Positions 11,618 to 43,673 of a stretch of DNA of 64,000 nucleotides are shown one piece after another (within the stretch, counting starts at the first letter, position 1; each line of letters begins with the position of its first letter). The DNA is from Deltaproteobacteria bacterium. Lineage in GTDB: Bacteria; Desulfobacterota; GWC2-55-46. Under the pieces are notes generated by a model. That model searched no databases. It saw only the letters and a program-made list of their open reading frames with translations, and was not told the DNA's origin. The position numbers were made by a program, and so were the translations under genes. The stretch spans positions 14,713 to 78,712 of the forward strand of contig JBBTBW010000016.1 in the NCBI GenBank assembly GCA_038043525.1. Reading direction: 5' to 3'.

Positions 11618-11689
11618 GCAGGTATCTGCCTCCGGTATGTTCTATTGTTTTTTGGCTTGATTATCGCGTCGAGCGTCTGCTGTGATCCG

Positions 11690-12778
11690 TCAGACCGCCC
11701 TGTATTTGTAAAAAGCCGCGCAGGTGCCTTCAGAAGATACCATGCACGGGCCTACCGGGAATTCAGGGGTGCAGACCTTGGCGAAAAGAGGGCATCCTTC
11801 AGGCCTGATGAGGCCTTTAAGCACTGAGCCGCAGGCGCAGCCTTTAGGTTCTTCGTCTATCCCGGGTGCGATCGAGAATCTCTTTTGAGCGTCAAACCCT
11901 GAGTAGCTATCGTTTATGGCAAGGCCGCTCCCTGGGATGTTGCCTATCCCCCTCCACAGCGCATCGGCAGGGACAAAGACCTCGGCTATGACCTCCTGTG
12001 CCTTTGTGTTGCCTTCCCACCTGACGACCCTCTCGTATTGTATCTCGATCTCATTCCTTCCTTCTTCGAACTGCCTTATGAGCATGTATATCCCGTGCAA
12101 AGCGTCGAGCGGCTCGAAGCCTGCGACCACGCACGGCGCATTGAATTCAGAGGAGATGAAGCCGTAGGCCCTCGCGCCGATGATGGCGGTGACATGCCCT
12201 GGGCATAAAAAGCCGTCTATGTCGAGTTCTCCAGCCACGAGAAGGGCCCTCATCGCTGGCGGTGTGAGCTTATGGAGCGATAAGACGGAGAAGTTTTTGA
12301 GACCCTCTTTTTTAGCGGCGATTATAGTCGCGGCGACTGTAGGCGCGGTCGTCTCGAAGCCTACGGCGTACATGACGACCTCTTTGTCAGGGTTCTGTCT
12401 GGCGATATCGAGGGAGCCAAGGGCGGAATAGACGACGCGTATGTCGGACCCGTTGGCCCGCTCCTGTTGGAGGCTCGTCTTCGATCCCGGGACCTTCATC
12501 ATATCTCCGAATGTAGCGATGATGACACCGGGGGTGACCCTTGCAAAATCTATTATCCGGTTGATGTCAGAGGCGGACGTGACGCATACAGGGCACCCCG
12601 GCCCGGAGATGAGCCTTATGTTGGCGGGAAGCGCCTGGCGTATGCCGAACCGTGAGATGGCGTGTGTGTGGGTGCCGCATATCTCCATTATGGAGACGTC
12701 CTTCGTTGATATCTCGGCAATCTTTCGTATAAGCCCCTGCGCAAGCTCTTTTTGTCTGAACTCGTCTAAGTATCTCAT
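11690..12778 (-). CDS. hypD: hydrogenase maturation protein HypD
   Basis: CGTHTHAI, GPGCPVC and C-terminal CxxC...C motifs of HypD. Confidence 0.9.
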   Translation of the reverse strand: MRYLDEFRQKELAQGLIRKIAEISTKDVSIMEICGTHTHAISRFGIRQALPANIRLISGPGCPVCVTSASDINRIIDFARVTPGVIIATFGDMMKVPGSKTSLQQERANGSDIRVVYSALGSLDIARQNPDKEVVMYAVGFETTAPTVAATIIAAKKEGLKNFSVLSLHKLTPPAMRALLVAGELDIDGFLCPGHVTAIIGARAYGFISSEFNAPCVVAGFEPLDALHGIYMLIRQFEEGRNEIEIQYERVVRWEGNTKAQEVIAEVFVPADALWRGIGNIPGSGLAINDSYSGFDAQKRFSIAPGIDEEPKGCACGSVLKGLIRPEGCPLFAKVCTPEFPVGPCMVSSEGTCAAFYKYRAV

Positions 12779-12993
12779 GATCTGCCCATCGCCTCGGCTA
12801 TGAGACGCAAGGTCTCTTCAGCCTTTTCGGTATCGAGCCTCTCTATGGCGAAACCGGCATGTACTATTACGTAGTCCCCGATAGAGGCCTCCCTCATAAG
12901 CTCGATGCTGCAGTCTTTTTTAGTGCCGCCTATCTCCACCTTGGCGAATGGGCCGTCTACTGATATTATCTTTGCCGGTATGCCGAGACACAT
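12775..12993 (-). CDS. hypC: hydrogenase maturation protein HypC
   Basis: MCLGIPAKI N-terminus (essential Cys2) on a ~70-aa OB-fold protein; GGAGG SD upstream; 4-nt overlap with hypD. Confidence 0.9.
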   Translation of the reverse strand: MCLGIPAKIISVDGPFAKVEIGGTKKDCSIELMREASIGDYVIVHAGFAIERLDTEKAEETLRLIAEAMGRS

Positions 12994-12996
12994 CTG

Positions 12997-15339
12997 CTAA
13001 CCTCCTTTCATCAGTTCCCAGGCGACAGCCGCCTGGCCGAGAGCTACCCCTCCGTCGTTCGAAGGGACCTGCTCATTTATATATACCTTGAAACCCTCTC
13101 TGGCAAGAGAGTCCATTGAGAGCGAAAGGAGGAGGCGGTTCTGGAAGGCGCCTCCGCTTAATGCCACGTCGCTTATGCCTGTAGCCTCGGCCATGGGTAT
13201 AAGGGTCTTAGTGATAATCGAGGCGAGGGTCTGATGGAACTTCGCGGCGATCTCAGAGGGAGTTTTTCCGTCAGAAACGTCCGCGACTATGGATCTTATC
13301 ATCTGAGCCAGGTCTATAGCCGTGATGCGCTCGGTAGAGCGCAAACCGTTATTCTCTATCTCGAAAGGGTAAGGGGCCGCCCGTTCGATGGGGTACTCTC
13401 TTGCCGCGGCCTCAAGGTTGACGGCGGCCTCTGCCTCGTAGGTTATCCTGTCTCTTATGCCGGCAAGCGAGGCGACGGCATCAAAGAGCCTTCCGGCGCT
13501 CGATGTCAGAGGCGTGTTGATGTCCTCATCCAGCATCTTCATTATGACTGCGCCTTCGGGTGTTGCGAACCTTGGGAAGTGTTTTTTTATGACCTCAATG
13601 GATCTTTCGCCATAAGCCTGCCGCAGATAAGAAAGGGCCATCCTCCACGGCTCTTTTACAGCCATCTCTGCGCCCGGGAGTCCAGTAGTGCCGAGGTGCG
13701 CGACCCTTTTGAAGGCCGACCTGTCGCATACGAAAAACTCTCCGCCCCAGACAGTGCCGTCTGTGCCGTAGCCTGTGCCGTCGAACGCGACCCCGAAGAT
13801 CTTTTTTCTGATCCCGTGTTCAGCCATCACGCCCGCGATGTGCGCGTGGTGGTGCTGGACCTCGACTATCCTGCCGACAGGTATCCCTTCGGATGCGGCG
13901 TACTCTGAGGCAAACGCGCTGGTGGCGTATCCCGGGTGCATGTCCCTTGCTATGATAGAAGGGTTTGACTTGAAAGAGGACCTGAGGTTCCTAAGGCTCT
14001 CTTTATAAAATTCGAGGGCGCCGGCGTTTTCCATGTCTCCTATATGGGTGCTCATGATGGCGAAGCGTCCCTTTGTAAGGCAGAAGGTATTTTTAAGCTC
14101 AGGGCCTGTCGCAAGTATATCGGCAGTATCTTCACCGAGGTCTATCGCTCCGGGGACAAAGCCCCTGGCCCTCCTTGAAAGGGAGACTCGCTTTCCGGTT
14201 ATCCTTGCGATCGAATCATCGACGCGCATATATATGTCCCTGTCGTGGAGTAGGAAGAAATCTGCCATGCCGGAGAGTTTTTCTACCGCGTCTTTGTTGG
14301 ATGTGACGATAGGCTCATCTGCCCTGTTGCCGCTCGTCATTACAAGGGCATTGAATTTTGCGCCGCTCAGGAGTATATGGTGCAAAGGGGTGTACGGGAG
14401 CATCACCCCGTATGCGGAATTGCCGGGCGCGACATGGACCGAAAGGGACCCGGTCTGTTTTTTTCCTAGAAGGACTATGGGCCGTGTCCGTTCTTCGAGG
14501 AGGTCTCTTTCCTCCGCTGAGACCTCAGCAAACCCTTCTACGGCAGATACGTCAACTGACATCACAGCGAATGGCTTGTTCGACTGAGACGCCTTTGTAA
14601 GAGAGCTTCTCTTTGAAGTACGAAGTCTTTTGACCGCCTCGTCGTTTTCAGCGTCGCACGAGAGGTGAAAACCTCCAATCCCCTTGATCGCTATGATCCT
14701 GCCTTCTTGCAAGAGCCTTACCGCCTCGTCGATTGCAGGACTGTTGACCCTTGAGACAGGCTTGCCTGTACCGTCAACGAGCCATGCCTTCGGGCCGCAT
14801 ATCTCGCAGGCGTTAGGCTGAGCGTGGAAGCGTCTGTCAGAAGGGTCGTGATATTCGGCGTCGCACGCAGGGCACATCATGAACCCAGCCATCGTCGTAT
14901 TCGGCCTGTCGTACGGCATATCTTTGATTATCGAATAGCGTGGGCCGCAGTTGGTGCAGTTTATGAAAGGGTAGAGGTGTCTCCTGTCGTTAGGGTCGAA
15001 TAGCTCGGCAAGGCACTCGGCACATACCGCAAAGTCAGGTGAGATAAGACCGAAGGCCCCTGCAAAGGAGACGGATTCCCTTATGGAGAATCCTGTGACA
15101 TCTCCGGTTAGAAAACATGGCTCTGTACGCAGGCCCGTTATCCTTGAAAGGGGCGGCGCGTTGCTTTTCAGCTCTTCAACGAACCTGTCGAGTCTGTCTC
15201 CGTACGCCTCTATTACGACGCCCTCGGAGTCGTTCAAGCAAAAGCCTCTTATCGAATGGGAGACAGCGAGGTTGTAGACGAACGGCCTGAAGCCTACGCC
15301 CTGGACGACCCCGGTGATATGTATCCGTATCCCGTCCAT
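12997..15339 (-). CDS. hypF: carbamoyltransferase HypF
   Basis: Acylphosphatase-like N-terminus (VQGVGFRPFV), two CxxC-x18-CxxC Zn fingers, YrdC/Sua5-like and Kae1-like domains. Size (780 aa) is typical. Confidence 0.9.
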   Translation of the reverse strand: MDGIRIHITGVVQGVGFRPFVYNLAVSHSIRGFCLNDSEGVVIEAYGDRLDRFVEELKSNAPPLSRITGLRTEPCFLTGDVTGFSIRESVSFAGAFGLISPDFAVCAECLAELFDPNDRRHLYPFINCTNCGPRYSIIKDMPYDRPNTTMAGFMMCPACDAEYHDPSDRRFHAQPNACEICGPKAWLVDGTGKPVSRVNSPAIDEAVRLLQEGRIIAIKGIGGFHLSCDAENDEAVKRLRTSKRSSLTKASQSNKPFAVMSVDVSAVEGFAEVSAEERDLLEERTRPIVLLGKKQTGSLSVHVAPGNSAYGVMLPYTPLHHILLSGAKFNALVMTSGNRADEPIVTSNKDAVEKLSGMADFFLLHDRDIYMRVDDSIARITGKRVSLSRRARGFVPGAIDLGEDTADILATGPELKNTFCLTKGRFAIMSTHIGDMENAGALEFYKESLRNLRSSFKSNPSIIARDMHPGYATSAFASEYAASEGIPVGRIVEVQHHHAHIAGVMAEHGIRKKIFGVAFDGTGYGTDGTVWGGEFFVCDRSAFKRVAHLGTTGLPGAEMAVKEPWRMALSYLRQAYGERSIEVIKKHFPRFATPEGAVIMKMLDEDINTPLTSSAGRLFDAVASLAGIRDRITYEAEAAVNLEAAAREYPIERAAPYPFEIENNGLRSTERITAIDLAQMIRSIVADVSDGKTPSEIAAKFHQTLASIITKTLIPMAEATGISDVALSGGAFQNRLLLSLSMDSLAREGFKVYINEQVPSNDGGVALGQAAVAWELMKGG

Positions 15340-16002
15340 TCAGGGCCTGCCTGCGCAACTGAGCTTGGCAAGGTAGTCGGAGAGGGCTTCTATCCCGGCC
15401 CCTGTCCTGCACGATGTCTCGAATATGGCGAGACCCGGGTTTATCTTAAGGGCGTTTGCCCTTGCCCTTTTGATGTCGAAGTCGGTAAACGGCGCAAGGT
15501 CTGTCTTGTTTATAACAAGGATATCCGAGGCTGAGAAGATGGCAGGGTATTTAAGCGGTTTGTCATCGCCCTCGGCGGTAGAAAGGATGGTCGCCATCAT
15601 ATCTTCCCCGAGGTCGTACTCCGCAGGGCAGACCATGTTGCCGACGTTTTCTATGATAAGTAGCCTGACCCCGGGGTTGCCGAAGACCCAGTCGAGCGCG
15701 TGGCCTACCGCGTGCGCGTCCAAATGGCAGGCCTTGCCCGTAGTGATCTGTTTCGCCGGGATGCCGCTTCTTAAGACCCTCTGACTGTCGAGGTCCGTCT
15801 GAAGATCGCCCTCGATGACTAAGGTATTCAGCCTGGGTTTGAGAAAAGGGGCGAGAGCCTCGATGAGGGAGGTCTTTCCTGCCCCCGGAGAGCTGACCAT
15901 GTTGATCGAAAAAATCCCGCGGGACTTGAGAGCCGCCCTGTTTGCCGAGGCGAGCTCGTTATTCCTTGCAAGGACCTTCTCTTCTATGAGTATCTCGTGC
16001 AT
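15340..16002 (-). CDS. hypB: hydrogenase nickel-incorporation GTPase HypB
   Basis: SPGAGKTSL P-loop and ENVGNMVCP of HypB; stop abuts the hypF start. Confidence 0.9.
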   Translation of the reverse strand: MHEILIEEKVLARNNELASANRAALKSRGIFSINMVSSPGAGKTSLIEALAPFLKPRLNTLVIEGDLQTDLDSQRVLRSGIPAKQITTGKACHLDAHAVGHALDWVFGNPGVRLLIIENVGNMVCPAEYDLGEDMMATILSTAEGDDKPLKYPAIFSASDILVINKTDLAPFTDFDIKRARANALKINPGLAIFETSCRTGAGIEALSDYLAKLSCAGRP

Positions 16003-16017
16003 CGGCCTCCGATGGGG

Positions 16018-16359
16018 CTAAAGCGCGTCGATAGAGACTATGTCAAGCTCGGTGCCGGCTATCTTTTCAACGTCCGTGCCGGAACAGGCCGGGCATATCA
16101 ACGCGAAATCAGTTATCTTCCATGTAGTCGCGCACCCGGAGCACCTGCCTGTGAGCGGCACGCCTTCGATCTCGAGTGTAGCTCCTTCGAGTTCGGTCTT
16201 TTTGATAGAGGCGTCAAAGCAGAACCTGAGCGATTCCGGGTCGATGGCCGTAAGCTCTCCTATCCGGAGCTTTACGGATAGGAGGCGCTTAAAATAGCTC
16301 TTTTTCATCTCTCCACGGATTATATCGATGATATCTTCCGTTATCGACATCTCGTGCAT
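16018..16359 (-). CDS. hypA: hydrogenase nickel-insertion protein HypA
   Basis: MHEMSI N-terminus (His2), C-terminal CxxC-x12-CxxC Zn site. Confidence 0.9.
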   Translation of the reverse strand: MHEMSITEDIIDIIRGEMKKSYFKRLLSVKLRIGELTAIDPESLRFCFDASIKKTELEGATLEIEGVPLTGRCSGCATTWKITDFALICPACSGTDVEKIAGTELDIVSIDAL

Positions 16360-16369
16360 ATCAGACCCT

Positions 16370-16864
16370 TCAGCCCTTCTTTTTAACGAAGAAGCCTGCT
16401 GCTGTAAGCTCAGAGGCGATCGCCCCTGCGACCTCAGGGAGCAGCCTTTCCATTGTATCTGTCAGTGTAAGGCCCGGGCAGACCTTTTCAGGAACGACGC
16501 CTATGACTGATGTCTCAGGCGCTCTCCCTTCAAAGGCCGCAAGCGCTAGAAATTCCCTGACCCCCACACCGTGCGCCGTCGTGAGGGTGGAATCGCCTTT
16601 GAGTATATCATCTGATTTGAGACGGCGGATGGAGCCTACCCTGCTGCCGTCTTTTATCGCGTCGACTATGACGGCATGGGTGAACCCGCAGAGTATATCG
16701 GCGAGCTTTGCCCCTGCGGTGCCGCCGTCAAGGCATTCGATCTCGCCGCCTGTAGAGTATAGACGTTCAAAGGCCTCGACAGAGCGCACACCTACCCCGT
16801 CGTCTCTCATGAGTATGTTGCCGATGCCGAGTACCAGCGCCTTTTTTTCAGGTCTTTTCTTCAT
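16370..16864 (-). CDS. [NiFe]-hydrogenase maturation endopeptidase (HyaD/HybD/HycI family)
   Basis: LVLGIGNILMRDDGVGV N-terminus and DAIKDGSRVG motif of hydrogenase maturation proteases. First gene of the minus-strand operon. Confidence 0.85.
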   Translation of the reverse strand: MKKRPEKKALVLGIGNILMRDDGVGVRSVEAFERLYSTGGEIECLDGGTAGAKLADILCGFTHAVIVDAIKDGSRVGSIRRLKSDDILKGDSTLTTAHGVGVREFLALAAFEGRAPETSVIGVVPEKVCPGLTLTDTMERLLPEVAGAIASELTAAGFFVKKKG

Positions 16865-17166: not shown

Positions 17167-17197
17167 TTGTGGTCAGGTATTCTCTTGTCTTTATAAT
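17167..17197 (+). promoter_or_regulatory. candidate promoter for bd-like oxidase cluster
   Basis: Perfect TATAAT at 17192-17197, with a weak -35 (TTGTGG) 19 nt upstream, in a 428-bp divergent intergenic region. Confidence 0.25.
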
Positions 17198-17292: not shown

Positions 17293-19275
17293 ATGCTGAT
17301 ATCGGGATATATGATGAGGAAGATAATAAGAGCGTTTCGCCCTCTGTCGGTCATGGCCTTCGGGCTGATTGTCTGCGCTCTGATGATATGCGTGCTTTTT
17401 GTACCTTCTGTTGCCCTGTCCTCTGAGAAGGCCGTTACATCCGGCTCAGGGGCTGAGGCAGTGGTGCAGTCAGTTCGACCCGGCCTTGCGTCAGCCGGGC
17501 AGGACCCTTCTCCTCCAGCGCCTCTTTCTGCGTCTCTCAGTTCAGCGCCAGATTATGTAAGCGGGGCAGTTGGGGTAAATGCGGCCGTCGGGAAAGGCGA
17601 GGAAGGGCAGGGCGCGCCGCAGCTCAAGGCTGGGGATTATCCGAAGATAAGGGGAGTTAACGGCAGGGTCGCCGTCTGGCTTGCGGCGCAGATGCACCTC
17701 TGGTTTGCCGCCTTCGTTCTTGCCGTTCCGATATTCGTCCTTCTCATAGAAGTCATCGGCGTCTATACCGGTAGCGACAGGTATGACGATATGGCGTACG
17801 AGTTCATACGCGTCTCCATGACCGCCTATTCAGTCACGGCTATTACAGGCGGAGTACTGCTACTCGGCCTTGTCGTCTTTTATCCGGATCTCATGAAGTA
17901 CCTCTCGCGCATCTTCGCCCCTACGATGATCATCTATGCCGTCCTTTTCTTCGTCGAGACAGGGGCGCTATACGTCTATTATTACGGCTGGCGCTCTATG
18001 AGAAGAGGGAGGCTCAAATGGGCGCATCTCGGCGTAGGGTTGGTATTGAACACGGCAGGGACCTCTCTCATGCTTATTGCAAACGCATGGGTGACGTTCA
18101 TGATGACCCCTTCAGGGGTGGGGCCTTCCGGGATCTTTGACGGCAACGTATGGCACGCCGTTAACAATCACCTCTGGTCGCCGATGAACCTCCACAGGTT
18201 CATCGCCAACATAGCCTACGGCGGGTCTATCGTCGGGGCCTACGCCGCTTACAGGTTCTTAAGTGCAAGGACCGAAGAGGCGAGAGCGCACTACGACTGG
18301 ATGGGTTATACCGCCAACCTCATCGCCATAGGGGCTCTGCTGCCGCTCCCGTTCGCAGGGTACTGGCTCACAGCCGAGATATACGCCTACAGCCAGCAGA
18401 TGGGGATAAACCTGATGGGCGGGGTCTTCGCGTGGCTCTTCATAATACAAGCTGTCATAATCGGGGCGCTTTTTCTGGCGGCCAATTATTATCTCTGGTG
18501 CGGCTTTGAAAGAAGCGAGGGAGGCCGCCGTTATACGCCTTATATAAAGTATATAGCCTTAGCCCTGCTCGCATCTTTTCTCGTATGGTTCACTCCTCAC
18601 TCGCTTGTAATGACTCCGTCCGAGGCGGCCCGGTTAGGCTCACAGTACCATCCGTGGCTCGCGCCGCTGGGGCTGATGCCTGCAAAGAACATAGCTGTCA
18701 ACGTCATGCTCCTTGCGACGTTCCTGAGTTTTCTCTTCTACCGGAGGACGAACAGGGTCGCTGTCGTAGGGTGGGCAAAGACCGGCAGCGCAATCCAGGC
18801 CGCCGTCTTTTGCGCGGGGCTTATAAACATAGTCGTCCTCGGTGTCTATTACGGGTATTATACGAACTCCGTCTACAAGGTCGCCTCGTCCGTTCCTCAG
18901 GTAGCGACTACCCTTGCGGTCATCATCGGGATACTTGTTATCGAAAGGCTGGTCTTTAAGGGGGCGAGGGAGGTCGGGCCTTTTAAATGGGGCAGGATGC
19001 CGGGTAGAAGCCAGTACGCATTGGTCCTTATAGCCGTATCTTTTACGTGGCTGATGGGGCTAATGGGTTTCATACGCTCGGCGATAAGACAGAACTGGCA
19101 CGTCTACTCGGTCATGAAAGATGCGTCCGTAGACGCCTTTACCCCGACTATAGCTTACGCGGCAAACGTGGTATCCATCGGCACGGTAGCCTTCATGTCT
19201 ATCGTGGTCTTCATATTCTGGCTGAGCCGGAAAGGGCCCAGTGACAGCGGCAAGGGCGTAAGTGATGAAGAATAA
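17293..19275 (+). CDS. cytochrome bd-like (CydA-like) polytopic membrane protein with N-terminal extension
   Basis: About 14 predicted TM helices. Segment GRVAVWLAAQMHLWFAAFVLAVPIFVLLIEVIG resembles the CydA N-terminus (RWQFA.T..FH..FVP). TM1 is followed by a Ser/Ala/Pro-rich spacer (residues ~40-110). Function inferred. Confidence 0.6.
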   Translation: MLISGYMMRKIIRAFRPLSVMAFGLIVCALMICVLFVPSVALSSEKAVTSGSGAEAVVQSVRPGLASAGQDPSPPAPLSASLSSAPDYVSGAVGVNAAVGKGEEGQGAPQLKAGDYPKIRGVNGRVAVWLAAQMHLWFAAFVLAVPIFVLLIEVIGVYTGSDRYDDMAYEFIRVSMTAYSVTAITGGVLLLGLVVFYPDLMKYLSRIFAPTMIIYAVLFFVETGALYVYYYGWRSMRRGRLKWAHLGVGLVLNTAGTSLMLIANAWVTFMMTPSGVGPSGIFDGNVWHAVNNHLWSPMNLHRFIANIAYGGSIVGAYAAYRFLSARTEEARAHYDWMGYTANLIAIGALLPLPFAGYWLTAEIYAYSQQMGINLMGGVFAWLFIIQAVIIGALFLAANYYLWCGFERSEGGRRYTPYIKYIALALLASFLVWFTPHSLVMTPSEAARLGSQYHPWLAPLGLMPAKNIAVNVMLLATFLSFLFYRRTNRVAVVGWAKTGSAIQAAVFCAGLINIVVLGVYYGYYTNSVYKVASSVPQVATTLAVIIGILVIERLVFKGAREVGPFKWGRMPGRSQYALVLIAVSFTWLMGLMGFIRSAIRQNWHVYSVMKDASVDAFTPTIAYAANVVSIGTVAFMSIVVFIFWLSRKGPSDSGKGVSDEE

Positions 19276-19834
19276 TTTTATATGGATAGCTCTGTTCGGC
19301 ATAGGGCTCGTCATTGCCTACGCGCTCTTTTCGAACCTCTACATACCATCTTCGGTCCCTGATCGGCAGACGGAAGATATCTCATCCGATACAGGCGTTT
19401 TGACTGGTGATGAGCTTGCGGCCTTCGGCGAGGAGATTTATTCCGGCAAGGGCTCTTGCGGACTTTGCCACGACGCTGTCGGAGATAGAGCTCCTGCACT
19501 TGATTCTATCGCAGTGAGAGCCGCCGAAAGGCTTTTGGACCCCCGCTACAAGGGCAAGGCCACTGACGCCGTAGGGTATATCTACGAGTCTATGGCAGAC
19601 CCGTCTGCTTATGTCGTTAAGGGCTACGGGGTAGCAGGGACAGATGATGCGGTCAGTCCGATGCCGGGCGTGCTTGGAGGCCAGATAGAGCTTACCGAAG
19701 TAGAGGTGACGGCTGTCATCGCGTATCTTCAAAAGAGGGCAGGGGTCGAGGTTACGGCAGGTTCTGCCCAAGGACCACTCATGCAGGGAAACGCTCCTGC
19801 GCCTGATACAACCGGCCTGATAAAATCGAGATGA
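19265..19834 (+). CDS. membrane-anchored monoheme cytochrome c
   Basis: N-terminal TM anchor and a single CGLCH heme-binding motif. ATG at 19265 overlaps the upstream stop. Confidence 0.8.
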   Translation: MKNNFIWIALFGIGLVIAYALFSNLYIPSSVPDRQTEDISSDTGVLTGDELAAFGEEIYSGKGSCGLCHDAVGDRAPALDSIAVRAAERLLDPRYKGKATDAVGYIYESMADPSAYVVKGYGVAGTDDAVSPMPGVLGGQIELTEVEVTAVIAYLQKRAGVEVTAGSAQGPLMQGNAPAPDTTGLIKSR

Positions 19835-19838
19835 CCAG

Positions 19839-20609
19839 ATGAAGATAGGAAGATTATTACGGCTCGTTATATTGACGTCCCTGGCGTATCTGCTCTTTAA
19901 GATCCCGGGCATCATCCTCGGAAAGCCGATCCCGTCGTCCATCATACAGATGTATATGTTTTTTGTTATCGTGACGATACTCCTTGTCATGACCGCTACT
20001 GAGGATTCGGCCCAGAGGCTCTTTGGGCCGATAAAAGCCATTGCGAGCGGCCAGTCCCCTTCAATGAGGCGCATTCGCACGGCTCTGTTTTTTATCATGC
20101 CGCTCTTTGCAGCGTATCTGACCTATCTCTCCATGAGACCTTCGACAGACCCGCCCGTGGAGCTCCGCTCAGTGCATCCGGCGCCTCCGGCTCTGATGAC
20201 CGCCTACGAAAAGACCTTTGACCTCGCTCTTCTTGAAAACCCGTTCCGGCCTTTAGAGAAGGAGGACCCGCTTCTCTTTCGGTCGATTGTCGCCGAGGGC
20301 GGGGAGATATATTTCAAGAACTGTTTTTTCTGCCACGGGGACAAGCTTGACGGCAGAGGCCATTATGCAAGGGCTTTAAACCCGGCGCCTCTGCCATTCC
20401 AAGGTGGCGATACGATAGCGCAGCTCCAGGAATCGTATGTATTCTGGAGGATAGTCAAGGGCGGGCCGGGACTCCCTAAGGAGGCAGGGCCTGCTGTTTC
20501 TTCCATGCCCGCCTGGGAGGGGATGCTTACCGAAGAAGATGTCTGGAAGACGATGCTCTTTATATACGACTACACCGGCAATACGCCGAGATCATGGGTG
20601 AACAGGTGA
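19839..20609 (+). CDS. membrane-bound monoheme cytochrome c
   Basis: Three N-terminal hydrophobic helices then a CFFCH heme-binding motif in a C-terminal soluble domain. Confidence 0.8.
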   Translation: MKIGRLLRLVILTSLAYLLFKIPGIILGKPIPSSIIQMYMFFVIVTILLVMTATEDSAQRLFGPIKAIASGQSPSMRRIRTALFFIMPLFAAYLTYLSMRPSTDPPVELRSVHPAPPALMTAYEKTFDLALLENPFRPLEKEDPLLFRSIVAEGGEIYFKNCFFCHGDKLDGRGHYARALNPAPLPFQGGDTIAQLQESYVFWRIVKGGPGLPKEAGPAVSSMPAWEGMLTEEDVWKTMLFIYDYTGNTPRSWVNR

Positions 20610-20620
20610 AGGGCTATTCA

Positions 20621-22162
20621 ATGCGTCAGTTCATCTTGATATCGATATCTGCGGCTATCGGGTTGTTTTTTGCAGGCGGCTCGAATCTGAGCCATGCCGA
20701 CGAGGCTGTATCTCCGGCTGTAAGGGATGCCTACGTAAAGAGGTGCTCGTGGTGCCACGGCCTTGAAGGCGCCGGAGACGGCCCTGCATCAGGGTACTTA
20801 AACCCGGCGCCAAGGGACTTTACCCTTGGTATGTATAAGTGGAAGACGACGCCTTATGACGAGTACTCGCCGTCGGACGGAGATCTTGAGAGGATGATCG
20901 CAGGTAGATCAGAAGGCGGCTGGGACGGTCTGAAGGATACGTCCATGCCAGGCTGGTCGGATACCATCACAAGGCAGGAGATAAGGGATATCGGCGCCTA
21001 CATAAAGACCTTCGCCAGCCTCGGCCCGTCTGTCAACAAGGTGATAGAGCCGCCTTCAGGCATGAAGGGAGCGTCGAAGAATGTTCTCGAGCAAGGCAGG
21101 AAGCTCTTTCTCGACAGGTGCTCTGAATGCCACGGCGAGCTTGGCAGGGGAGACGGCACAAAGAGGCTCAAAGACGACTGGGGCGGGCGAACGTGGCCGA
21201 GGAACCTTACAAAGGATTGGACGTTCAGGGCAGGCAGTGATGTAAAGGATATCTACAGGAGGATCATGGCAGGCATCCCGGGCACACAGATGCCGAGTTT
21301 TGCCGACCCTCAGAGCAAAAAGAGGCTCTCTGATGAAGAGGCGTGGGCTGTAGCCTCGTACGTCAAAACGTTAAACGCGCCGCACAAGAGGCCTGTCGAG
21401 GGAGCCGTCATAAACGCCGTTAAGATAGACACCCCGGTGCCGACGAGCGTTGACGACGAAAGATGGGAGAAGGCGGCGTACGCGAGTTTTTATACACTTC
21501 CTCAGGTAATAGCCGGAGAGAGGCACTTCACCCCGACTATCAACTCGATGTCTGTAAAGGCTCTTTATAATGACATGGATATCGCCTTTCTTGTCGAATG
21601 GGACGATCCGACGCGCGGCGTGCCGGGAGATGTAAAGTCAATGGAGATCGCCGGAGGCGAGGTCTTTGTTGACGGGGCGGCGATGCAGTTCACTGTAAAG
21701 CCGTCAGGTACCCTGAGGCCGTATTTCGGGATGGGAGACGGAATGCACCCGGTGAATCTCTGGATGTGGCAGTCCGCAGAAGGGGCCGGGGCGGTGCGGC
21801 TTTTGAACGCCAGAGGGGTTAAGGAGATAGATGAGCGTGACGCGCCGATGGTCGGGCTTACTGCCTCTGGTGTGTATTCAAACGGCCAATGGAAAGCGAT
21901 TTTTACAAGGCCGCTTTTGACGGAAGACCCGTCTGTTGATATCCAGTTCAGCCCCGATACCTTCATCCCTGTCGCATTGTCAGCGTGGGACGGGTCAAAC
22001 AATGAGAAGGGCTCGAAGCACGTCTTGACGCAGTGGCAGTGGGTAAGGCTTGGCAGGGATGAGGGCGGGTCGCCTTACCTCTGGCCTGCTCTCGCAGGTG
22101 TAGCAGTGCTGGCGATAGAGCTTTTGTGGGTCCGCAGTGCGAGGAAGAGGCGGGAGGGGTAG
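20621..22162 (+). CDS. diheme cytochrome c fused to ethylbenzene-dehydrogenase-gamma-like (EB_dh) heme-b domain, C-terminal TM anchor
   Basis: Signal peptide (MRQFILISISAAIGLFFAGGSNLSHA), CSWCH and CSECH motifs. The C-terminal ~250 aa (YNDMDIAFLVEWDD...MQFTVKP...GMGDGMHPVNLWMWQ) resembles the EB_dh/NarH-gamma-like domain. Ends in a hydrophobic anchor. GAAGGG SD upstream of the ATG at 20621. Confidence 0.7.
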   Translation: MRQFILISISAAIGLFFAGGSNLSHADEAVSPAVRDAYVKRCSWCHGLEGAGDGPASGYLNPAPRDFTLGMYKWKTTPYDEYSPSDGDLERMIAGRSEGGWDGLKDTSMPGWSDTITRQEIRDIGAYIKTFASLGPSVNKVIEPPSGMKGASKNVLEQGRKLFLDRCSECHGELGRGDGTKRLKDDWGGRTWPRNLTKDWTFRAGSDVKDIYRRIMAGIPGTQMPSFADPQSKKRLSDEEAWAVASYVKTLNAPHKRPVEGAVINAVKIDTPVPTSVDDERWEKAAYASFYTLPQVIAGERHFTPTINSMSVKALYNDMDIAFLVEWDDPTRGVPGDVKSMEIAGGEVFVDGAAMQFTVKPSGTLRPYFGMGDGMHPVNLWMWQSAEGAGAVRLLNARGVKEIDERDAPMVGLTASGVYSNGQWKAIFTRPLLTEDPSVDIQFSPDTFIPVALSAWDGSNNEKGSKHVLTQWQWVRLGRDEGGSPYLWPALAGVAVLAIELLWVRSARKRREG

Positions 22163-22195: not shown

Positions 22196-22270
22196 ATAAC
22201 TTGAACCCAATGATCCGTAAAGGCGCATGCTAAATTCAAGGGGCAGGTTGTAAGCCTGCTCCTTGAAGAA
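22196..22270. repeat. left imperfect direct repeat flanking GmrSD insertion
   Basis: ACTTGAACCCAATGATCCGTAAAGGCGCATGCTAAATTCAAGGGGCAGGTTGTAAGCCTGCTCCTTGAAGAAG is ~80% identical to 24255-24328. Confidence 0.5.
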
Positions 22271-22368
22271 GTCTATAGATGCTGTGTTTGCGGCAGACCT
22301 CCTAGACAGGGAAGCTTACGGTTTTGCGGGTCTTAGAGGAAATGACAAGACGGGCATGAACGACTTCT

Positions 22369-24144
22369 TCATTGCTCGATAGCTTTTTCAAGATCAGCAA
22401 TTGGCAAGGTAATACCATAGGATGCCAACAACATAGTAAGCGTCTCTTTATGGTTCCTTTTTAGATCATCCAACGTCCAATTATTGAAGGTTTGTAAAAT
22501 TCTTACGGAGTTGCTAAAAAGTTCTACGTTTTTCTGAAAGTATCCTTCCCTTTTTTGCCGGTAATCCTGATTGCCTTGTGCGGTATTCTTCCTCCGAGAC
22601 AGGAGAATGAGATTGCCGAGCCTGTTAGTCCATTTGTCTCGCTCCGGTCCTGTAAAATCAGCAACCCATTGACTACTTGTATCCGGTGTCTGAGGAAGAA
22701 TATGCTCAATGCTTATTGTTTCAGGTGGTGAAAATTTAGTTGTGTGCCCATGATAGGCAAGATCGATCTTTAAAATGATATATCTAGCATAACCACGGCC
22801 ATAAATTGCCCCTGTGAGCGATCGAAGAATATCCTGAGTTTCCACTTTGAAAACGGGAGAAGCAAACAGGGCATTTTGATCGGCTGCACCTTCGATCTCT
22901 TTGAGGATGGCATTTGCATTTTCGATACGTTTTGTTGGTGCCAATCCAATTATCCAATCAGAAGAAAACTTCACGTCTAAAAGGTGCAAGAACTTGAGTA
23001 AGTTTTCCGTTTTATATTTTGCGTAATAGCATAGAAGGGGTGCAATCCAGTAATCAGCCTCAAAACCAATTCGCATCAGGGTAAGTTGGTTGTGAAGTTC
23101 GAAGCTGTTTGTCAAATTGTAAGTGTCATCTTCAAAAAGACTAAGGTAGTGCTTATAATGACTTTCGACAAATTCGAAAGTATCTTCCCCTTTTTTTAAT
23201 AGCGGAGTTTTATTGATATAGGTTTTCGTATTACGGTCAAATTCTTTTGGAGCGTAGATATTTTCCTCAAATTCTTTAAGAAGATTGTAGCCTGCTTTCT
23301 GTTTGACAAGCACGGTTCTGAGGTGAGAGAGAAAGTTGTCGAACTCTTCAGTAAAATATCCCTCAATATTCTCCCATGTTTTTGCATATTTGGTTCTGGT
23401 GTTGTTGTCTTTAATTCTGGCGAGGTTCTCTGCCTTAAGAATGTCGCTATTGCGTAGCTTGATGCCTCGGTTGTTCATAACTGTAAACAGATGAAAGGCA
23501 TCTTCAAGCTCTTCAGTCGCAACATAGATCATCAGAACGTTGGAGCGTAAAAACGGAAAGAACGTTTCCAGAGATTTGCCATTCTTGAAAAAGCCTCTAA
23601 TGGTCAGAATGGCATTGGCCATATTTCTGATGGACATGTCTTCATCGTTTTCTTGAGAAAGATGCTTTATTTCTTCGTCTTTGAGTGTACCTCCATCTGC
23701 CTTGACGTACTTATCAACAAAATTCTTCACTGTATCGCGGATATCAAAGACAATACGACTGCGCTCGGGAATATTGTCGTCGGGATTTGCCATCTGATAA
23801 ATAGTTTCCCGGCAGGTCTTGATCCGCGCCTTATTGTCTGCTGGTGTTAGATCACGAACCACAGCAGTTATCAGGAAGAGGGTTGTCAGCCGTTGTTGGC
23901 CGTCAAGAAGGTCATGCTCTTCGTATCTGATATTCCCATCCTGCTTATCCGATTTTTTTAATACCATAGAACCAAGAAAGTACTGAGACCTGGGGTTAGA
24001 TTGACTCGCACGATACACATCATCAAGCAATTCTACAACTTGATCAGCCTCCCAAACATATGGACGCTGGTATTCCGGGATGCGGTACCATTTCAGGAAA
24101 ACATCTTTTACGAAAAGTTTCTCACTTTTAATTTCAGGCGCCAT
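22369..24144 (-). CDS. GmrSD-family type IV restriction endonuclease (DUF262 + DUF1524)
   Basis: N-terminal DUF262/ParB-like motif (EYQRPYVW...DGQQRLTT), C-terminal His-Me/HNH-like DUF1524 (IEHILPQ...NLILLSRRKN). Gene body is conspicuously AT-rich. GAGGTGG SD upstream. Confidence 0.85.
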   Translation of the reverse strand: MAPEIKSEKLFVKDVFLKWYRIPEYQRPYVWEADQVVELLDDVYRASQSNPRSQYFLGSMVLKKSDKQDGNIRYEEHDLLDGQQRLTTLFLITAVVRDLTPADNKARIKTCRETIYQMANPDDNIPERSRIVFDIRDTVKNFVDKYVKADGGTLKDEEIKHLSQENDEDMSIRNMANAILTIRGFFKNGKSLETFFPFLRSNVLMIYVATEELEDAFHLFTVMNNRGIKLRNSDILKAENLARIKDNNTRTKYAKTWENIEGYFTEEFDNFLSHLRTVLVKQKAGYNLLKEFEENIYAPKEFDRNTKTYINKTPLLKKGEDTFEFVESHYKHYLSLFEDDTYNLTNSFELHNQLTLMRIGFEADYWIAPLLCYYAKYKTENLLKFLHLLDVKFSSDWIIGLAPTKRIENANAILKEIEGAADQNALFASPVFKVETQDILRSLTGAIYGRGYARYIILKIDLAYHGHTTKFSPPETISIEHILPQTPDTSSQWVADFTGPERDKWTNRLGNLILLSRRKNTAQGNQDYRQKREGYFQKNVELFSNSVRILQTFNNWTLDDLKRNHKETLTMLLASYGITLPIADLEKAIEQ

Positions 24145-24254
24145 TTACCACCTCGGTTTCTTAAATCATCAGACATCTGTGGACATCCGTGTCTGTGCAA
24201 TCCTTTTAGCATAATGTGGAATGTAAAGCAACCCCCTGTCGGATCAAAATCTGC

Positions 24255-24328
24255 GACTTGAACTGCATGATCAGGAAAGGCGTATGCGAAATCCAAGGAG
24301 CAGGTTGCAAGCTTGCTCTTGCGAAGAA
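24255..24328. repeat. right imperfect direct repeat flanking GmrSD insertion
   Basis: ACTTGAACTGCATGATCAGGAAAGGCGTATGCGAAATCCAAGGAGCAGGTTGCAAGCTTGCTCTTGCGAAGAA, paralogous to 22196-22270. Confidence 0.5.
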
Positions 24329-24334
24329 AACCGC

Positions 24335-24775
24335 TTGTTACTAACCCCACCCAGCCTCCCCTTGTGAGTAAGGGGAGGAGCAAAACCAAAACGGCCTTTG
24401 AATTTAGCCGCTGCTTTTAACAAAACCCGGGTCATGGCGTAGCGAGCCTGACTGAGAGACGTTGAGCAGGTTCTTGTATCTACTGCGAAACGGCTCGAAA
24501 GCGAAGCGAGCCATACCCAAAAGGAGCGCCGAAGCGCAAAGCAAGAGTCAGACCGATGTTTTTCGCAAAGGGGCGTTGTAAAGAAAATCATTCGGCGGGT
24601 GTGACCCGCCCTACCAGACTTGTATCTGCTGCGAAACGGCCGGACAGCGAAAGCGAAGCGAGCCATACCCAAAAGGCGCACGGAAGTGCAAAGCAGGAGT
24701 CAGGCAGATGTTTTTTGTAAGGGCAGTTCGAGCCATACCCAAAAGACGCGCAGAAGTGCAACTCAGCTCTTTGTC
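24335..24775. repeat. block of modular dispersed repeats (palindrome unit A, the TTTGAATTT module, and ~160-nt structured unit C ending in GATGTTTTT)
   Basis: Shares near-identical modules with 32960-33117 and 36965-37590. Example: 24400-24560 is ~90% identical to 37425-37585. No ORF of credible coding quality. Confidence 0.65.
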
Positions 24776-24957: not shown

Positions 24958-26184
24958 CTATCGGCCTGCCCGTTTTCTCAGTGTCGCCATGACCTCAGGC
25001 GTTATCTCGTTCAATCCCTTTGACCTAGCGTATGCCTCTACGCCCTTTTTTATCATCGATCTTAAAAATGAAGGCGCTTTGTCAAGGCGCTCCTGAGCCT
25101 CGGCCGTCCATCTCACAAATGTGCCGGTGATTTTCTCAGAGGCGTTTTTTGACGGAGTGTATACGCACCACGGGTCTTCGCCTGAGAGGCTGTTGCCTGA
25201 AGCAAAGGCGCGGGCCCTGCACCCTCCGCACGTCTCTTTGAATTCGCATCCGCCGCACCTGCCTTCTAGGTCGCGCTTCCTCATTGCTGTAAAGAGGGGG
25301 TCTTTCTCCCAGATATCTTTGAGGGATTTTTCTCCTATGGCAGGTCCTTCCGGTGAGGGAGGTATGTACGGGCACGGGGTGACACGCCCTTCCGGCGTTA
25401 TCCTCATATAACCCGTAGCGGCGATGCATCCGCTCGTGCCGCCTCTTGCCAGCGAGCCGTCAGGATTGATCCTGCCGGCAACTCTCACGATGTGCGGCGC
25501 GCATCTGGCCCTGACCATAACGCCTCCGGCCGTATCGTCTGCCTTTGCGATTTCTTCAAGGACGCCTTCGTATTCCGAAGGAGAGAGGTCGGTCATTTGC
25601 TGGCCTCTGCCTGTGCAGACAAGGAAGAATATGTTTACTCCAGTAGCACCCTTTTCACCGGCGAGCCGTATTACGTCCTTTAGCGACCCTCTGTTCTCTT
25701 TCGTCACTGTCAGGTGGAGTTGGAACGGAAGACCGCTTTCCTTCAGGTTGTCTATTCCTTTTATAGTCGAGAGCCATGCGCCTGGAACCCCTCTGAACCT
25801 GTCGTGTACTTCAGGGGCCGCGCTGTCAAGGCTTACGCCTACGCCTGCGACGTTTGCCTTTATGAGGCTCTCGATTGCGGAAGGGGTCAGGAGCGTGCCG
25901 TTTGTCCCGACTACGACCGAGAGGCCTTTTGATGAGGCGTATGAGGCTATCTCAGGAAGGTCCGGCCTTAAAAGCGGTTCCCCTCCCGTCATGATGACCA
26001 TGGCAGAGGGGTTTATCGAGGCTATCTCATCTACGATCCTGAGGGCTGATCTTGTATCGATGTCAGAGGCGCCTTCGAGCTCTACCGCGCCTAAGTAGCA
26101 GTGGACACACCTCAGGTTGCACCTCTTTGTCAGGTTCCATGAGACGAGAAATGGAGGCGTTGTCATCTCTGGTGTCTCTGGCAT
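24958..26184 (-). CDS. radical SAM/SPASM-domain protein with C-terminal PCP_red-like helical module
   Basis: CNLRCVHCY (CxxxCxxC), SPASM cysteines (CGGCEFKETCGGCRARAF), C-terminal W-TAEAQERLDKAPSFLRSMIKKGVEAYARSKGLNEITPEVM. Confidence 0.85.
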   Translation of the reverse strand: MPETPEMTTPPFLVSWNLTKRCNLRCVHCYLGAVELEGASDIDTRSALRIVDEIASINPSAMVIMTGGEPLLRPDLPEIASYASSKGLSVVVGTNGTLLTPSAIESLIKANVAGVGVSLDSAAPEVHDRFRGVPGAWLSTIKGIDNLKESGLPFQLHLTVTKENRGSLKDVIRLAGEKGATGVNIFFLVCTGRGQQMTDLSPSEYEGVLEEIAKADDTAGGVMVRARCAPHIVRVAGRINPDGSLARGGTSGCIAATGYMRITPEGRVTPCPYIPPSPEGPAIGEKSLKDIWEKDPLFTAMRKRDLEGRCGGCEFKETCGGCRARAFASGNSLSGEDPWCVYTPSKNASEKITGTFVRWTAEAQERLDKAPSFLRSMIKKGVEAYARSKGLNEITPEVMATLRKRAGR

Positions 26185-26186
26185 CC

Positions 26187-27380
26187 TTAGCCTTCCATAT
26201 TCTTTCTGATTTTGCGCATGAACGCCGGGCTTATGGTATTAACGCCGTCTTTCCTGGCGGCATCCTCGACCATGAGCCTGACGACACCCCTTGCGAACAG
26301 GGGGATAGAGTCGAGTATGGAGGTCGCATCTTTTTCCCATACGGGCGCGTCTCCTGTGGCGGTACCTGAGGCGGCTCTTTCCGCCTCTCCATCATATCTC
26401 CTTGACGAGATGAGCAGGTTGCAGCTTGTGCGCTGCAGGCTTCTTTCTGTGAGAGACCCGATATCAAGTGACGGGCTCTCATGCGCCCCGGTCTTTCCGA
26501 GGACGAAGAGAAAGGGGCGGGCCTCTTCGACGTGCCTTATCACCACGTCCGATGGCTTGCCTTCAAGCAGGGTCGTTTTTATGGTGACGGAGTTCTGCTT
26601 AGCTATCATGGAGGCTGTATCAAGGTGGTCCTGATATATGCGTCCGAGGCCCTTGTCTATGACCTCTTCATGGAGACGCTCCTGCTCTGAAAACCTGAAG
26701 AGCCTGCCTGCCTCGTCGGATAATACTCCTCCCAGAGAGCGGAAGGCGTGTCTATGGTAATCGGTGTCGTATGCGCTTATAGCCTCTATCTGCCCGCCGA
26801 ACGCTTTTGAGAGTTCGATTGCTGTTAGTAGCCCTCCGAATGAGCGAGTGGAGCCGTCTATTGCGACGATGATCGAGCCTGAACGGTCCGTATCCACCCT
26901 TGAGATGAGCGTGTCGCAAGGCGCCATCCTTGCCACCCTCGCGCATACGCTGCCGGTCTCGCTATCTCTCGTTTTGCCGAGCCCTGATGAGCCGATGACA
27001 AGAAGGTCGTATCCGCCGCTAGCGGCCTCTTTGATCAGTTCCTCGAAGTTTTTGCCCTCTCTGCTGATCGCATCGGCCTCGACGCCGAGGGTGCGGGCAG
27101 ATGTGAGGAATACGTCGTTATACGAATCAGAGATTATGCGCAGGCCCTTGGATATCAGTGTGTCGTGCACCTCTCTCTGGTCTTTCAGGCGGCTTGTGTC
27201 CTGATACTGGGGGGGCAGGCCTGCCTCCATCTGGCGGAACCTGTCGTTATGGAGGTTTGCCGCGTAGACGTGACAGCCCGTTGCCGCAGCTCCTTCAAAG
27301 CGGGCGATTGCCAGGCCGAGATCCGCGCCTGAGTTTGACTGTGCGGAGTTATCAAGACAGATGAGGATTTTTTTTAGCAT
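26187..27380 (-). CDS. tandem universal-stress-protein (UspA) domain protein with C-terminal PCP_red-like module
   Basis: Two UspA-like alpha/beta domains (ILICLDNS..., IIVAIDGS...) plus a C-terminal W-EKDATSILDSIPLFARGVVRLMVEDAARKDGVNTISPAFM, clearly paralogous to the C-terminus of the downstream radical-SAM protein. Stop lies 2 nt before the next gene's start. Confidence 0.8.
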   Translation of the reverse strand: MLKKILICLDNSAQSNSGADLGLAIARFEGAAATGCHVYAANLHNDRFRQMEAGLPPQYQDTSRLKDQREVHDTLISKGLRIISDSYNDVFLTSARTLGVEADAISREGKNFEELIKEAASGGYDLLVIGSSGLGKTRDSETGSVCARVARMAPCDTLISRVDTDRSGSIIVAIDGSTRSFGGLLTAIELSKAFGGQIEAISAYDTDYHRHAFRSLGGVLSDEAGRLFRFSEQERLHEEVIDKGLGRIYQDHLDTASMIAKQNSVTIKTTLLEGKPSDVVIRHVEEARPFLFVLGKTGAHESPSLDIGSLTERSLQRTSCNLLISSRRYDGEAERAASGTATGDAPVWEKDATSILDSIPLFARGVVRLMVEDAARKDGVNTISPAFMRKIRKNMEG

Positions 27381-36639: not shown

Positions 36640-36964
36640 CCCAACCGCCTTGTTTTTTGCTCTCGCTGGAGCCGGTGCTAAATCGTCTGAAAAAGCGTGA
36701 AAGTCAGCTGAAAGGGGAAATATCCGGAGTTGCAAATTCATGGGGGTGTGGCTCAAAGATGGTATGCGCCTGCTTTTGCAGGCGGTCAGGCCCTTCACTG
36801 CGAGGCTGTCTCGAAGCCGCAGGGACTGAGCTGTCCGGGGTTACATTGGCGTTAGTGTAGTTCGTTGAAGACCTGAGAGATCGCCTGAACATCACCTGAC
36901 AATCAATATATTCTACGTCTGACTCGCTCTTTTTGCAACCGGCCCACAAAAAAACAAGGCTGAT

Positions 36965-43666: not shown

Positions 43667-43673
43667 GCGGGAT

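Follow-up and report, generated by a model that had tools for sequence, protein, structure and literature searches.

A membrane-tethered fusion of a dihaem cytochrome c and an EB_dh domain encoded with a cytochrome bd-like protein in a groundwater 'Deltaproteobacteria' genome

The fusion gene and its operon

We analysed a 64-kb stretch of DNA (hereafter the window) from contig JBBTBW010000016.1 of an uncultured 'Deltaproteobacteria' bacterium (assembly GCA_038043525.1) that comes from the Hainich groundwater metagenome. The gene under study lies at 20621–22162 on the + strand and encodes a 513-aa protein with a predicted signal peptide, a dihaem cytochrome c, an EB_dh domain of the type that holds haem b and a C-terminal transmembrane helix. 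Three co-oriented genes precede it, and the four, which overlap or are separated by 4–11 nt, make up a 4.9-kb operon (17293–22162). The first of these (17293–19275, + strand) encodes a 660-aa cytochrome bd-like homologue of CydA with ~14–15 hydrophobic segments, recognised by Pfam and by alignments with CydA proteins in the PDB. It overlaps by 14 nt with the gene for a 190-aa monohaem cytochrome c (19262–19834, + strand; CGLCH at residue 66), which has an N-terminal hydrophobic anchor or signal and keeps its position among related loci. The third gene (19839–20609, + strand) encodes a 256-aa monohaem cytochrome c with three transmembrane helices and CFFCH at residue 162. An initial annotation of this DNA, made from its sequence alone, had pictured the fusion protein as a c/c/b electron wire beside a bd-like protein. 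This reading holds, and the bd-like gene belongs to the same operon.

The open reading frame (ORF) is intact and ends with the stop codon at 22160–22162. Its longest form starts at the ATG at 20594 and gives 522 aa, which is the form deposited at NCBI (P0001, 100% identity). The ATG at 20621 is at least as plausible a start: AAGGG lies 7 nt 5' of it, and it avoids an overlap with the preceding gene. Residue numbers are those of the 513-aa form throughout. Hydropathy gives only two strong hydrophobic stretches, residues 1–23 and 484–507. The first falls in a predicted Sec signal peptide (residues 1–26, MRQFILISISAAIGLFFAGGSNLSHA; 20621–20698, + strand) with the usual n/h/c layout and S-H-A ahead of D27, a prediction drawn from hydropathy and this motif. 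The second corresponds to the C-terminal transmembrane helix (LWPALAGVAVLAIELLWVRSA; 22079–22141, + strand), which spans residues 487–512 in an AlphaFold2 model and is followed by a basic tail, RSARKRREG, placed in the cytoplasm. The signal peptide and the C-terminal anchor named in the initial annotation are thus supported. The terminal helix is also conserved in sequence among 106 homologues taken from related loci, the set in which ligands were counted as well: an intramembrane glutamate, E500, is present in 72 of them and R505 in 79. Conservation of the helix, E500 included, suggests a specific contact beyond plain anchoring.

Profile searches identify both halves of the mature protein. 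Pfam Cytochrom_C matches two stretches (E 1.6e-20; 74.7 bits against a cut-off of 21.3), and the CSWCH and CSECH motifs occupy residues 42–46 and 167–171. The dihaem module itself (residues 32–256; 20714–21388, + strand) is homologous to Kustc0457 of Kuenenia (6h5l_B), so the two-haem N-terminal half is confirmed. The EB_dh, or EbdC-like, beta-sandwich domain (residues 269–478; 21425–22054, + strand) scores 72.9 bits against PF09459, for which the gathering cut-off is 33.3 (E 5.3e-20), and the match covers profile positions 4–234 of 236, which bears out the domain suggested for the C-terminal half. NarI had been named as another gamma subunit with this domain, but it is no EB_dh-domain protein. 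The AlphaFold2 model of the full protein, made with 40 homologues, has a predicted local distance difference test score (pLDDT) of 80.8 and a predicted template-modelling score (pTM) of 0.77. In this model the N-terminal half is helical, the C-terminal half forms a beta-sandwich, and the chain ends in the terminal helix.

A Foldseek comparison of this model with the PDB returned 6h5l_B (TM score 0.83), 2ivf_C (0.75) and 7b04 (0.6), all normalised to the PDB entry. These top matches fit the dihaem plus EB_dh architecture, and the next ones are CBM9, DOMON and cellobiose dehydrogenase cytochrome folds. Sequence comparisons with PDB entries gave the same proteins, 6h5l_B with E 6e-29 (residues 32–256), 7b04_C with 8e-14 and 2ivf_C with 1e-6; with a family profile the values were 2e-47, 1e-17 and 2e-16, respectively. 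The PDB searches found no solved structure nearer to the protein than 6H5L, 7B04 or 2IVF. These domain, fold and motif matches cannot be chance. We conclude that the gene product is tethered to the membrane in the periplasm and carries two c-type haems and, judging from its EB_dh domain, probably one b-type haem.

Each of these relatives differs from the fusion protein in how its domains are used. The N-terminal 225 residues are homologous to Kustc0457 (6H5L chain B), with 32% identity and both CxxCH motifs in common; Kustc0457 is a stand-alone, soluble partner of the octahaem HAO-like protein Kustc0458, whereas the module is here fused to a haem-b type domain and an anchor. EbdC, the gamma subunit of ethylbenzene dehydrogenase (2IVF chain C), and Kuenenia NxrC (KsNxrC; 7B04 chain C) share the beta-sandwich fold, the EB_dh membership and the position of a Met ligand with the C-terminal half. 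However, they are soluble single-domain subunits with a Met/Lys-ligated haem b and are bound to the beta subunit of a molybdoenzyme. The fusion protein has His for Lys, an added dihaem c module and transmembrane helix, and no molybdoenzyme genes nearby. CcoP of cbb3 oxidases is analogous in being a membrane-anchored dihaem c subunit that feeds an oxidase core, but sequence matches to it are weak and point to no close homology, and CcoP has an N-terminal helix anchor and lacks a haem-b domain. The cytochrome domain of cellobiose dehydrogenase, a fungal flavoenzyme, belongs to the same fold superfamily as the EB_dh domain, again with no close homology. That domain uses a His/Met-ligated haem b as a built-in electron relay.

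Haem ligands of the fusion protein

The ligands of the two c haems are well conserved. In haem 1, C42, C45 and H46 are joined by M109 as candidate distal ligand, and in haem 2, C167, C170 and H171 are joined by M224. All eight residues (C42, C45, H46, M109, C167, C170, H171 and M224) are kept in 102–106 of the 106 homologues. This invariant set of Cys, His and Met fits two His/Met class I c haems, and we infer that M109 and M224 are the distal ligands.

For haem b, the initial annotation had expected conserved Met and Lys axial ligands. Such ligands are known in EbdC (M108/K201; PDB 2IVF) and in KsNxrC (M155/K305; PDB 7B04). In HMMER alignments to EbdC, M371 of the fusion protein (nt 21731–21733, + strand) falls at the position of M108 and H467 (nt 22019–22021, + strand) at that of K201, and we propose these two residues as ligands. 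The expected Met is therefore present, whereas the Lys is replaced by a His that is invariant in the main clade. Position 467 is His in 84 of the 106 homologues and Met in 20; position 371 is Met in 74, Arg in 23 and His in five. The commonest pattern, Y368/M371/H467, occurs in 66 sequences, and H371/H467 in five. The only Lys close by is K466, the neighbour of H467, and this position holds K, R, I, A, V or Q. Because it varies so freely, K466 is not a haem-b ligand, and with H467 at the position of EbdC K201 we rejected Met/Lys ligation of the protein. A few family members do not have both Met and His at the proposed sites, among them the homologues at loci L085 (Y/A/Y at 368/371/467) and L076 (Y/M/R).

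The 20 sequences with M467 are informative here. All of them carry H368 and R371, and they form a paralogous clade, the first copy of tandemly duplicated modules in Proteobacteria. The reciprocal change (Y368H, M371R, H467M) leaves one His and one Met, and this is the best evidence in our data for haem binding. In the upstream tandem copy, the His and Met ligands of haem b have apparently been swapped between the two sides of the pocket. Alignment and conservation together suggest that haem b of the fusion protein is probably His/Met-ligated, through M371 and H467, rather than Met/Lys-ligated. We found no paper on ligand variants of NxrC-type proteins. Tandem copies of the whole module occur in many alpha- and gammaproteobacterial loci, for example at L068 (3031–4665), L040 (2133–3821) and L069 (3758–5392).

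The subfamily models of NCBIfam are consistent with a domain that differs from the known gamma subunits. The model for type II DMSO-reductase gamma subunits (TIGR03477) scores 88.5 bits, below its cut-off of 169.85, and the EbdC equivalog model scores 45 bits against a cut-off of 400. The EB_dh domain of the fusion protein lies inside the Pfam domain family and outside the canonical gamma-subunit subfamily.

Relatives, gene order and the bd-like subunit

A word-indexed search with the protein found 923 homologues, and the best 120 all have the identical three Pfam domains. An exhaustive profile search gave 1,096 representative clusters (50% identity) at E ≤1e-30, and 178 loci with relatives were located in species-representative genomes. 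The best 80 of these 178 loci were used for the related-locus analyses, in which all ORFs were clustered. Metagenome-assembled genomes (MAGs) at these 80 loci are labelled groundwater 'Deltaproteobacteria'/Thermodesulfobacteriota, Rhodospirillaceae, Acidiferrobacteraceae, Woeseia, Halieaceae, Arenicellales, Magnetococcus, Zetaproteobacteria/Mariprofundaceae and Nitrospirae. A second search added homologues labelled Gallionella, Ca. Ferrigenium, Nitrosomonadales, Magnetococcales and Nitrospinae. Most lineages of the family are not nitrite oxidisers; Gallionella, Mariprofundaceae, Magnetococcus, Woeseia and Rhodospirillaceae, among others, are not known to oxidise nitrite.

Clustering of the ORFs showed that the four-gene order is conserved nearly everywhere among the related loci. 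For 58 fused genes the sequence extended at least 4.5 kb upstream, and in 57 of these 58 cases a bd-like gene on the same strand ended within 2.5 kb upstream. The loci come from MAGs labelled Deltaproteobacteria/Thermodesulfobacteriota, Alpha-, Gamma- and Zetaproteobacteria, Magnetococcus and Nitrospirae. Co-occurrence with the bd-like gene is thus near-obligate. By contrast, none of the gene clusters that recur across the 80 loci is one of molybdopterin subunits, and the window itself encodes no alpha or beta subunit of a type II DMSO reductase; its sole molybdopterin-fold protein is NuoG. The absence of an associated molybdoenzyme that had been read from the window alone thus extends to the recurrent clusters of the related loci. 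The large ORFs of the window were considered as possible molybdoenzymes and rejected: the 1226-aa product is a Cache/HAMP/PAS/GGDEF/EAL sensor, the 837-aa product is NuoG and the 672-aa product is a H+-pyrophosphatase. Further large ORFs encode GatA/GatB.

Natural fusions link two of the cytochromes. P0105 (760 aa) joins a monohaem cytochrome c with three transmembrane helices to a protein of the type studied here, with 59% identity to the 256-aa protein over residues 2–250 of P0105 and 48% identity to our protein over residues 255–759. Similar fusions of 740–777 aa form at least a dozen database clusters, with examples such as the 748-aa ORFs at L036 and L053. By the Rosetta-stone argument, such fusions point to a physical association of the two cytochromes. 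They also give a consistent topology, with three helices in the membrane, the cytochrome domains in the periplasm and the last helix leading back to the cytoplasm.

The bd-like subunit resembles CydA in only part of its length. Pfam Cyt_bd_oxida_I matches residues 125–351, in the N-terminal part (E 6e-20), the alignments with PDB CydA proteins span the first helices, and no match to the Q-loop was found. Among 63 homologues H135, Y215, E222 and H301 are invariant; H135 and H301 align with haem ligands of CydA and E222 with its channel Glu. A His, then Tyr and Glu seven residues apart, then a second His is the OR-N2 pattern in Table S6 of Murali et al. (10.1101/2021.01.16.426971). The OR-N2 signature consists of ~14 transmembrane helices, His at the positions of E. 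coli H19 and H186, Y/E at those of E99/E107 and no Q-loop, and on residue pattern and topology we assign the product of 17293–19275 to this subfamily. Ahead of the conserved part, the protein has an N-terminal extension of ~120 aa with one transmembrane helix and a low-complexity stretch of Ala, Ser, Gly and Pro.

Modules of this kind have been described in several genome papers. Lücker et al. (2013; PMC3578206) reported that Nitrospina, Nitrospira and Kuenenia have an "alternative NxrC" in which haem-c sites are combined with a haem-b domain that is DMSO-reductase-like. It adjoins cytochromes c and a bd-like oxidase with 14 helices that was termed "conspicuous". In N. moscoviensis, alt_NxrC_2 has a signal peptide, one transmembrane helix and a dihaem c; it clusters with bd-like_3 and two membrane-bound cytochromes c and is among the 40 most transcribed genes (Mundinger et al., 2019; PMC6606698). 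TO_1 of Ca. Manganitrophus consists of a bd-like protein, two cytochromes c plus a cytochrome b located in the periplasm, and is expressed at the 98th percentile (Yu et al.; 10.1101/2021.11.15.468770). Murali, Gennis and Hemp noted that a homologue of ebdC and more than one cytochrome c are typical of OR-N2 operons and that the donor is probably cytochrome c (10.1101/2021.01.16.426971). In this literature the module has been put forward as a terminal oxidase or as an OR-N enzyme that oxidises cytochrome c. Papers from 2024–2025 also mention OR-N enzymes in Nitrospinota that do not oxidise nitrite. We found no paper with a structure of a bd-like complex.

The fusion, which the initial annotation had taken for an unusual architecture, is accordingly not a discovery. 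It is shared by the best 120 homologues and described in these papers (PMC6606698; PMC3578206; 10.1101/2021.11.15.468770; 10.1101/2021.01.16.426971), and our protein is an ordinary member of a widespread module. In content and order, the operon in the window equals the clusters of Nitrospira alt_NxrC_2 (NITMOv2_3640) and of the alternative NxrC of Nitrospina gracilis and Kuenenia. NITMOv2_3640 is larger, at 66.8 kDa compared with ~56 kDa, and its host is a Nitrospira, whereas our operon belongs to a MAG of an uncultured 'Deltaproteobacteria' bacterium from groundwater and the 64 kb around it contain no nxr genes. Homologues from Nitrospirae/Nitrospiria MAGs are 44–45% identical and have the same module wherever the contig is long enough (L051, L063, L066, and in part L079). 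When a homologue from a Nitrospiria MAG served as the query, the best 120 hits included proteins labelled Nitrospinae, Gallionella and Magnetococcales and none named Nitrospira, so the equivalence with alt_NxrC_2 rests on architecture and gene context. The composition of the module and the residue pattern of the bd-like protein are shared with TO_1 of Ca. Manganitrophus noduliformans and with OR-N2, respectively. However, the papers on these do not give haem-b ligands, the Kustc0457-like dihaem fusion or the radical-SAM and Usp-PCP_red neighbours discussed below, and they treat the function as hypothetical.

The homologues in iron oxidisers deserve separate mention. At L086 (Ca. Ferrigenium straubiae, an iron oxidiser of the family Gallionellaceae, CP194331.1; 3088–11378) the genes that flank the module include five more for small cytochromes c and one for a cytochrome b of the Ni_hydr_CYTB type. 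The many Gallionellaceae homologues, together with the similar wording "cytochrome b, hypothetical, monohaem, dihaem", raised the idea that the module is the Fe(II)-responsive cluster ircABCD (Slit_1321–1324 of Sideroxydans), but we rejected this identity. The irc clusters measure 2.2–3.3 kb compared with 4.9 kb here. They contain a dihaem c, a DUF1924 monohaem c (IrcB), a hypothetical protein and a small cytochrome b, whereas our module holds a 660-aa CydA-like protein and the EB_dh fusion. The Ca. Ferrigenium locus, which has a true homologue, resembles the module in the window and not the irc layout. A pangenome paper on the Gallionellaceae counted cbb3 and cydAB as the only oxidases, and a putative bd-like oxidase may have been overlooked in iron oxidisers of this family.

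Role of the complex and its flanking genes

We propose that electrons enter through the fusion protein, as its periplasmic subunit for this purpose, into a bd-like complex of four subunits that oxidises cytochrome c and most likely reduces O2. It would be exported by Sec and lose its signal peptide. Two c haems would be attached covalently with His/Met ligation (C42/C45/H46 with M109; C167/C170/H171 with M224), and one haem b would sit in the EbdC-like beta-sandwich, held by M371 and H467. The conserved C-terminal helix would keep the protein against the membrane subunits. Electrons from soluble periplasmic donors, cytochromes c or similar, would then travel along the c/c/b chain and by way of the two small cytochromes to the bd-like haems and from there, most likely, to O2, so that the complex would count as a bd-superfamily cytochrome c oxidase. 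Our data show the domain architecture, the conserved ligand candidates, the operon structure and the near-obligate co-occurrence with the bd-like gene; from these we infer the formation of the complex, the direction of electron flow, the acceptor and the occupancy and His/Met ligation of the haem-b site. We are fairly confident that the protein belongs to the bd-like complex. The terminal step is less secure, and O2 reduction seems to us only somewhat favoured; for the explanation taken as a whole our confidence is likewise moderate.

Several observations weigh against this proposal. The bd-like protein has ~7 extra helices and is missing the Q-loop, and further His (H245, H436, H453 and H603) and several Met and Trp are conserved in at least 95% of its 63 homologues. 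These extra residues in the C-terminal helices hint at additional cofactor sites. Haem-b binding is predicted from alignment, and the loop that carries H467 is modelled poorly, with pLDDT <50 for residues 461–465. Moreover, the module is reportedly kept in strictly anaerobic anammox bacteria (PMC3578206), and papers from 2024–2025 still call OR-N enzymes uncharacterised.

Some of the same observations would suit the same complex if it took part in reverse electron transport instead, with cytochrome c:quinone (or quinol:cytochrome c) oxidoreductase activity similar to that of alternative complex III and a bd-like subunit that reacts with quinone rather than O2. A quinone-linked role has been put forward for Nitrospina, Nitrospira and anammox bacteria (PMC3578206; PMC6606698), and according to the literature the module is retained by the strict anaerobes among them (anammox). 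Many carriers are lithotrophs on high-potential donors (iron, manganese, nitrite), which need reverse electron flow, and the extra bd-like helices with their conserved His and Met could form a new quinone or cofactor site. However, all known quinol-binding residues are missing together with the Q-loop, and the bd-like subunit keeps the residues of the O2-reducing haem site of CydA. We regard a quinone-linked role as unlikely, although it is the strongest of the alternatives.

Less probable still, and in our view doubtful, is a role as an alternative gamma subunit, the origin of the name alt_NxrC. In such a role the EB_dh domain would dock to the beta subunit of a periplasmic type II DMSO-reductase-family enzyme like nitrite oxidoreductase (NXR) encoded elsewhere in the genome, and the protein would anchor this enzyme to the membrane and hand its electrons on to the c haems. 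Elsewhere, in EbdABC and NxrABC, the EB_dh fold partners beta subunits, and the literature places the module within nxr clusters or close to them in Kuenenia and, in part, in Nitrospina. Against this, alpha and beta subunits are absent from the 64-kb window and from the recurrent clusters of the 80 related loci, the family has spread into lineages not known to oxidise nitrite, and the tie to the bd-like gene is near-obligate. In addition, the protein misses the NCBIfam cut-off for gamma subunits, its Lys ligand is replaced, and the N. moscoviensis transcript is 2.5–4-fold lower than that of nxrABC (PMC6606698). That the EB_dh-like domain is a haem-free, structural or carbohydrate-binding sandwich of the CBM9/DOMON type, leaving the protein a dihaem c only, is very improbable: non-haem CBM9 modules do share the fold, the Lys ligand of EbdC is missing and the L085 and L076 homologues do not have Met and His at the sites, but in structure and sequence alike the best matches are EbdC and NxrC, which bind haem, rather than CBM9, the Met of EbdC M108 is retained, an invariant His stands at the K201 position and the reciprocal swap keeps His plus Met.

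Downstream of the operon lie two genes that are kept as neighbours of the module across phyla. One (24958–26184, − strand) encodes a NirJ2/AhbD-like radical-SAM/SPASM enzyme with a C-terminal PCP_red domain, as judged by Pfam and NCBIfam; it scores 292 bits with the NirJ2 model and 280 bits with the AhbD model, both under the 500-bit equivalog cut-offs. The other (26187–27380, − strand) encodes a tandem-Usp protein that also ends in a PCP_red domain (Pfam). Among 40 related loci with enough flank, each gene was found in 29, and at least one of them in 31. The pair is convergent with the module in the 'delta' clade; it shares the strand of the module in Proteobacteria, where the Usp-PCP_red versions have up to 4 PCP_red repeats and a gene for a HemY-type protoporphyrinogen oxidase (256 bits; cut-off 97.85) follows the pair. 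Further examples are at L068 (12084–16967) and L086 (259–2046). In a reverse search, many of the best homologues of the radical-SAM protein shared contigs with homologues of the fusion protein. A literature search found no paper that ties radical-SAM/PCP_red genes to bd-like oxidases. These may be ordinary late haem-synthesis genes placed near a haem-rich complex, or they may be a dedicated, module-specific set for cofactor tailoring (tetrapyrrole maturation).

Other features of the window are listed here for context. The 428-bp divergent intergenic region 5' of the bd-like gene contains a candidate promoter, TGGTCA-16-TATAAT (17170–17197, + strand; 10 of 12 positions match). The scan for promoters and terminators gave site counts not above a shuffled background, and this site is only a candidate. 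On the other side of this region lies a hyp/hyc hydrogenase-maturation cluster (10574–16864, − strand) with hypE, D, F and B, a small hypA-like ORF and a HycI protease. Its adjacency to the bd-like operon is conserved in the 'Deltaproteobacteria' clade (~12 loci) and not elsewhere, and no hydrogenase structural genes were found in the window. Between the operon and the radical-SAM gene is a gene for a GmrSD-family type IV restriction enzyme (22369–24144, − strand). It lies in a region of low G+C content (~22200–24600; 39–44% compared with ~55% around it) and is absent from L003, a relative with 87% identity, and it looks like a recently acquired defence gene. The 1226-aa sensor gene (33118–36798, − strand; dCache, HAMP, two PAS, GGDEF and EAL domains) keeps its position in L003. 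A probable complex I (nuo) operon spans ~41666–57775 (+ strand), where the NuoG-like 837-aa subunit and three Proton_antipo_M subunits were checked, and the gene for a membrane H+-pyrophosphatase (61849–63867, + strand) follows it, a respiratory-chain context.

In Nitrospira, Nitrospina and Ca. Manganitrophus, bd-like complexes of the OR-N type are presumed to be the main terminal oxidases, and our analysis finds modules of this type to be widespread in MAGs labelled iron oxidisers and in uncultured groundwater bacteria. The clean example in this window, with no nxr genes nearby, weakens the label "alternative NxrC" and favours a role that is independent of NXR. The window also adds the specific prediction of M371 and H467, instead of Met/Lys, as haem-b ligands, and a conserved accessory gene pair that could be of use when the complex is expressed in a heterologous host. 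The pair is the freshest lead of this analysis. We think it possible, though improbable, that all of this belongs together: a self-contained respiratory enzyme independent of NXR (a terminal oxidase that oxidises cytochrome c or a c:quinone oxidoreductase), a His/Met haem b in an EbdC fold whose two ligands are swapped between sides in a paralogous copy, and dedicated tetrapyrrole-tailoring genes that supply a modified haem. If so, the bd-like complex would hold a modified haem that has so far been overlooked, and its assembly would rely on the NirJ2/AhbD-like and Usp-PCP_red genes and, in Proteobacteria, the HemY-type gene.

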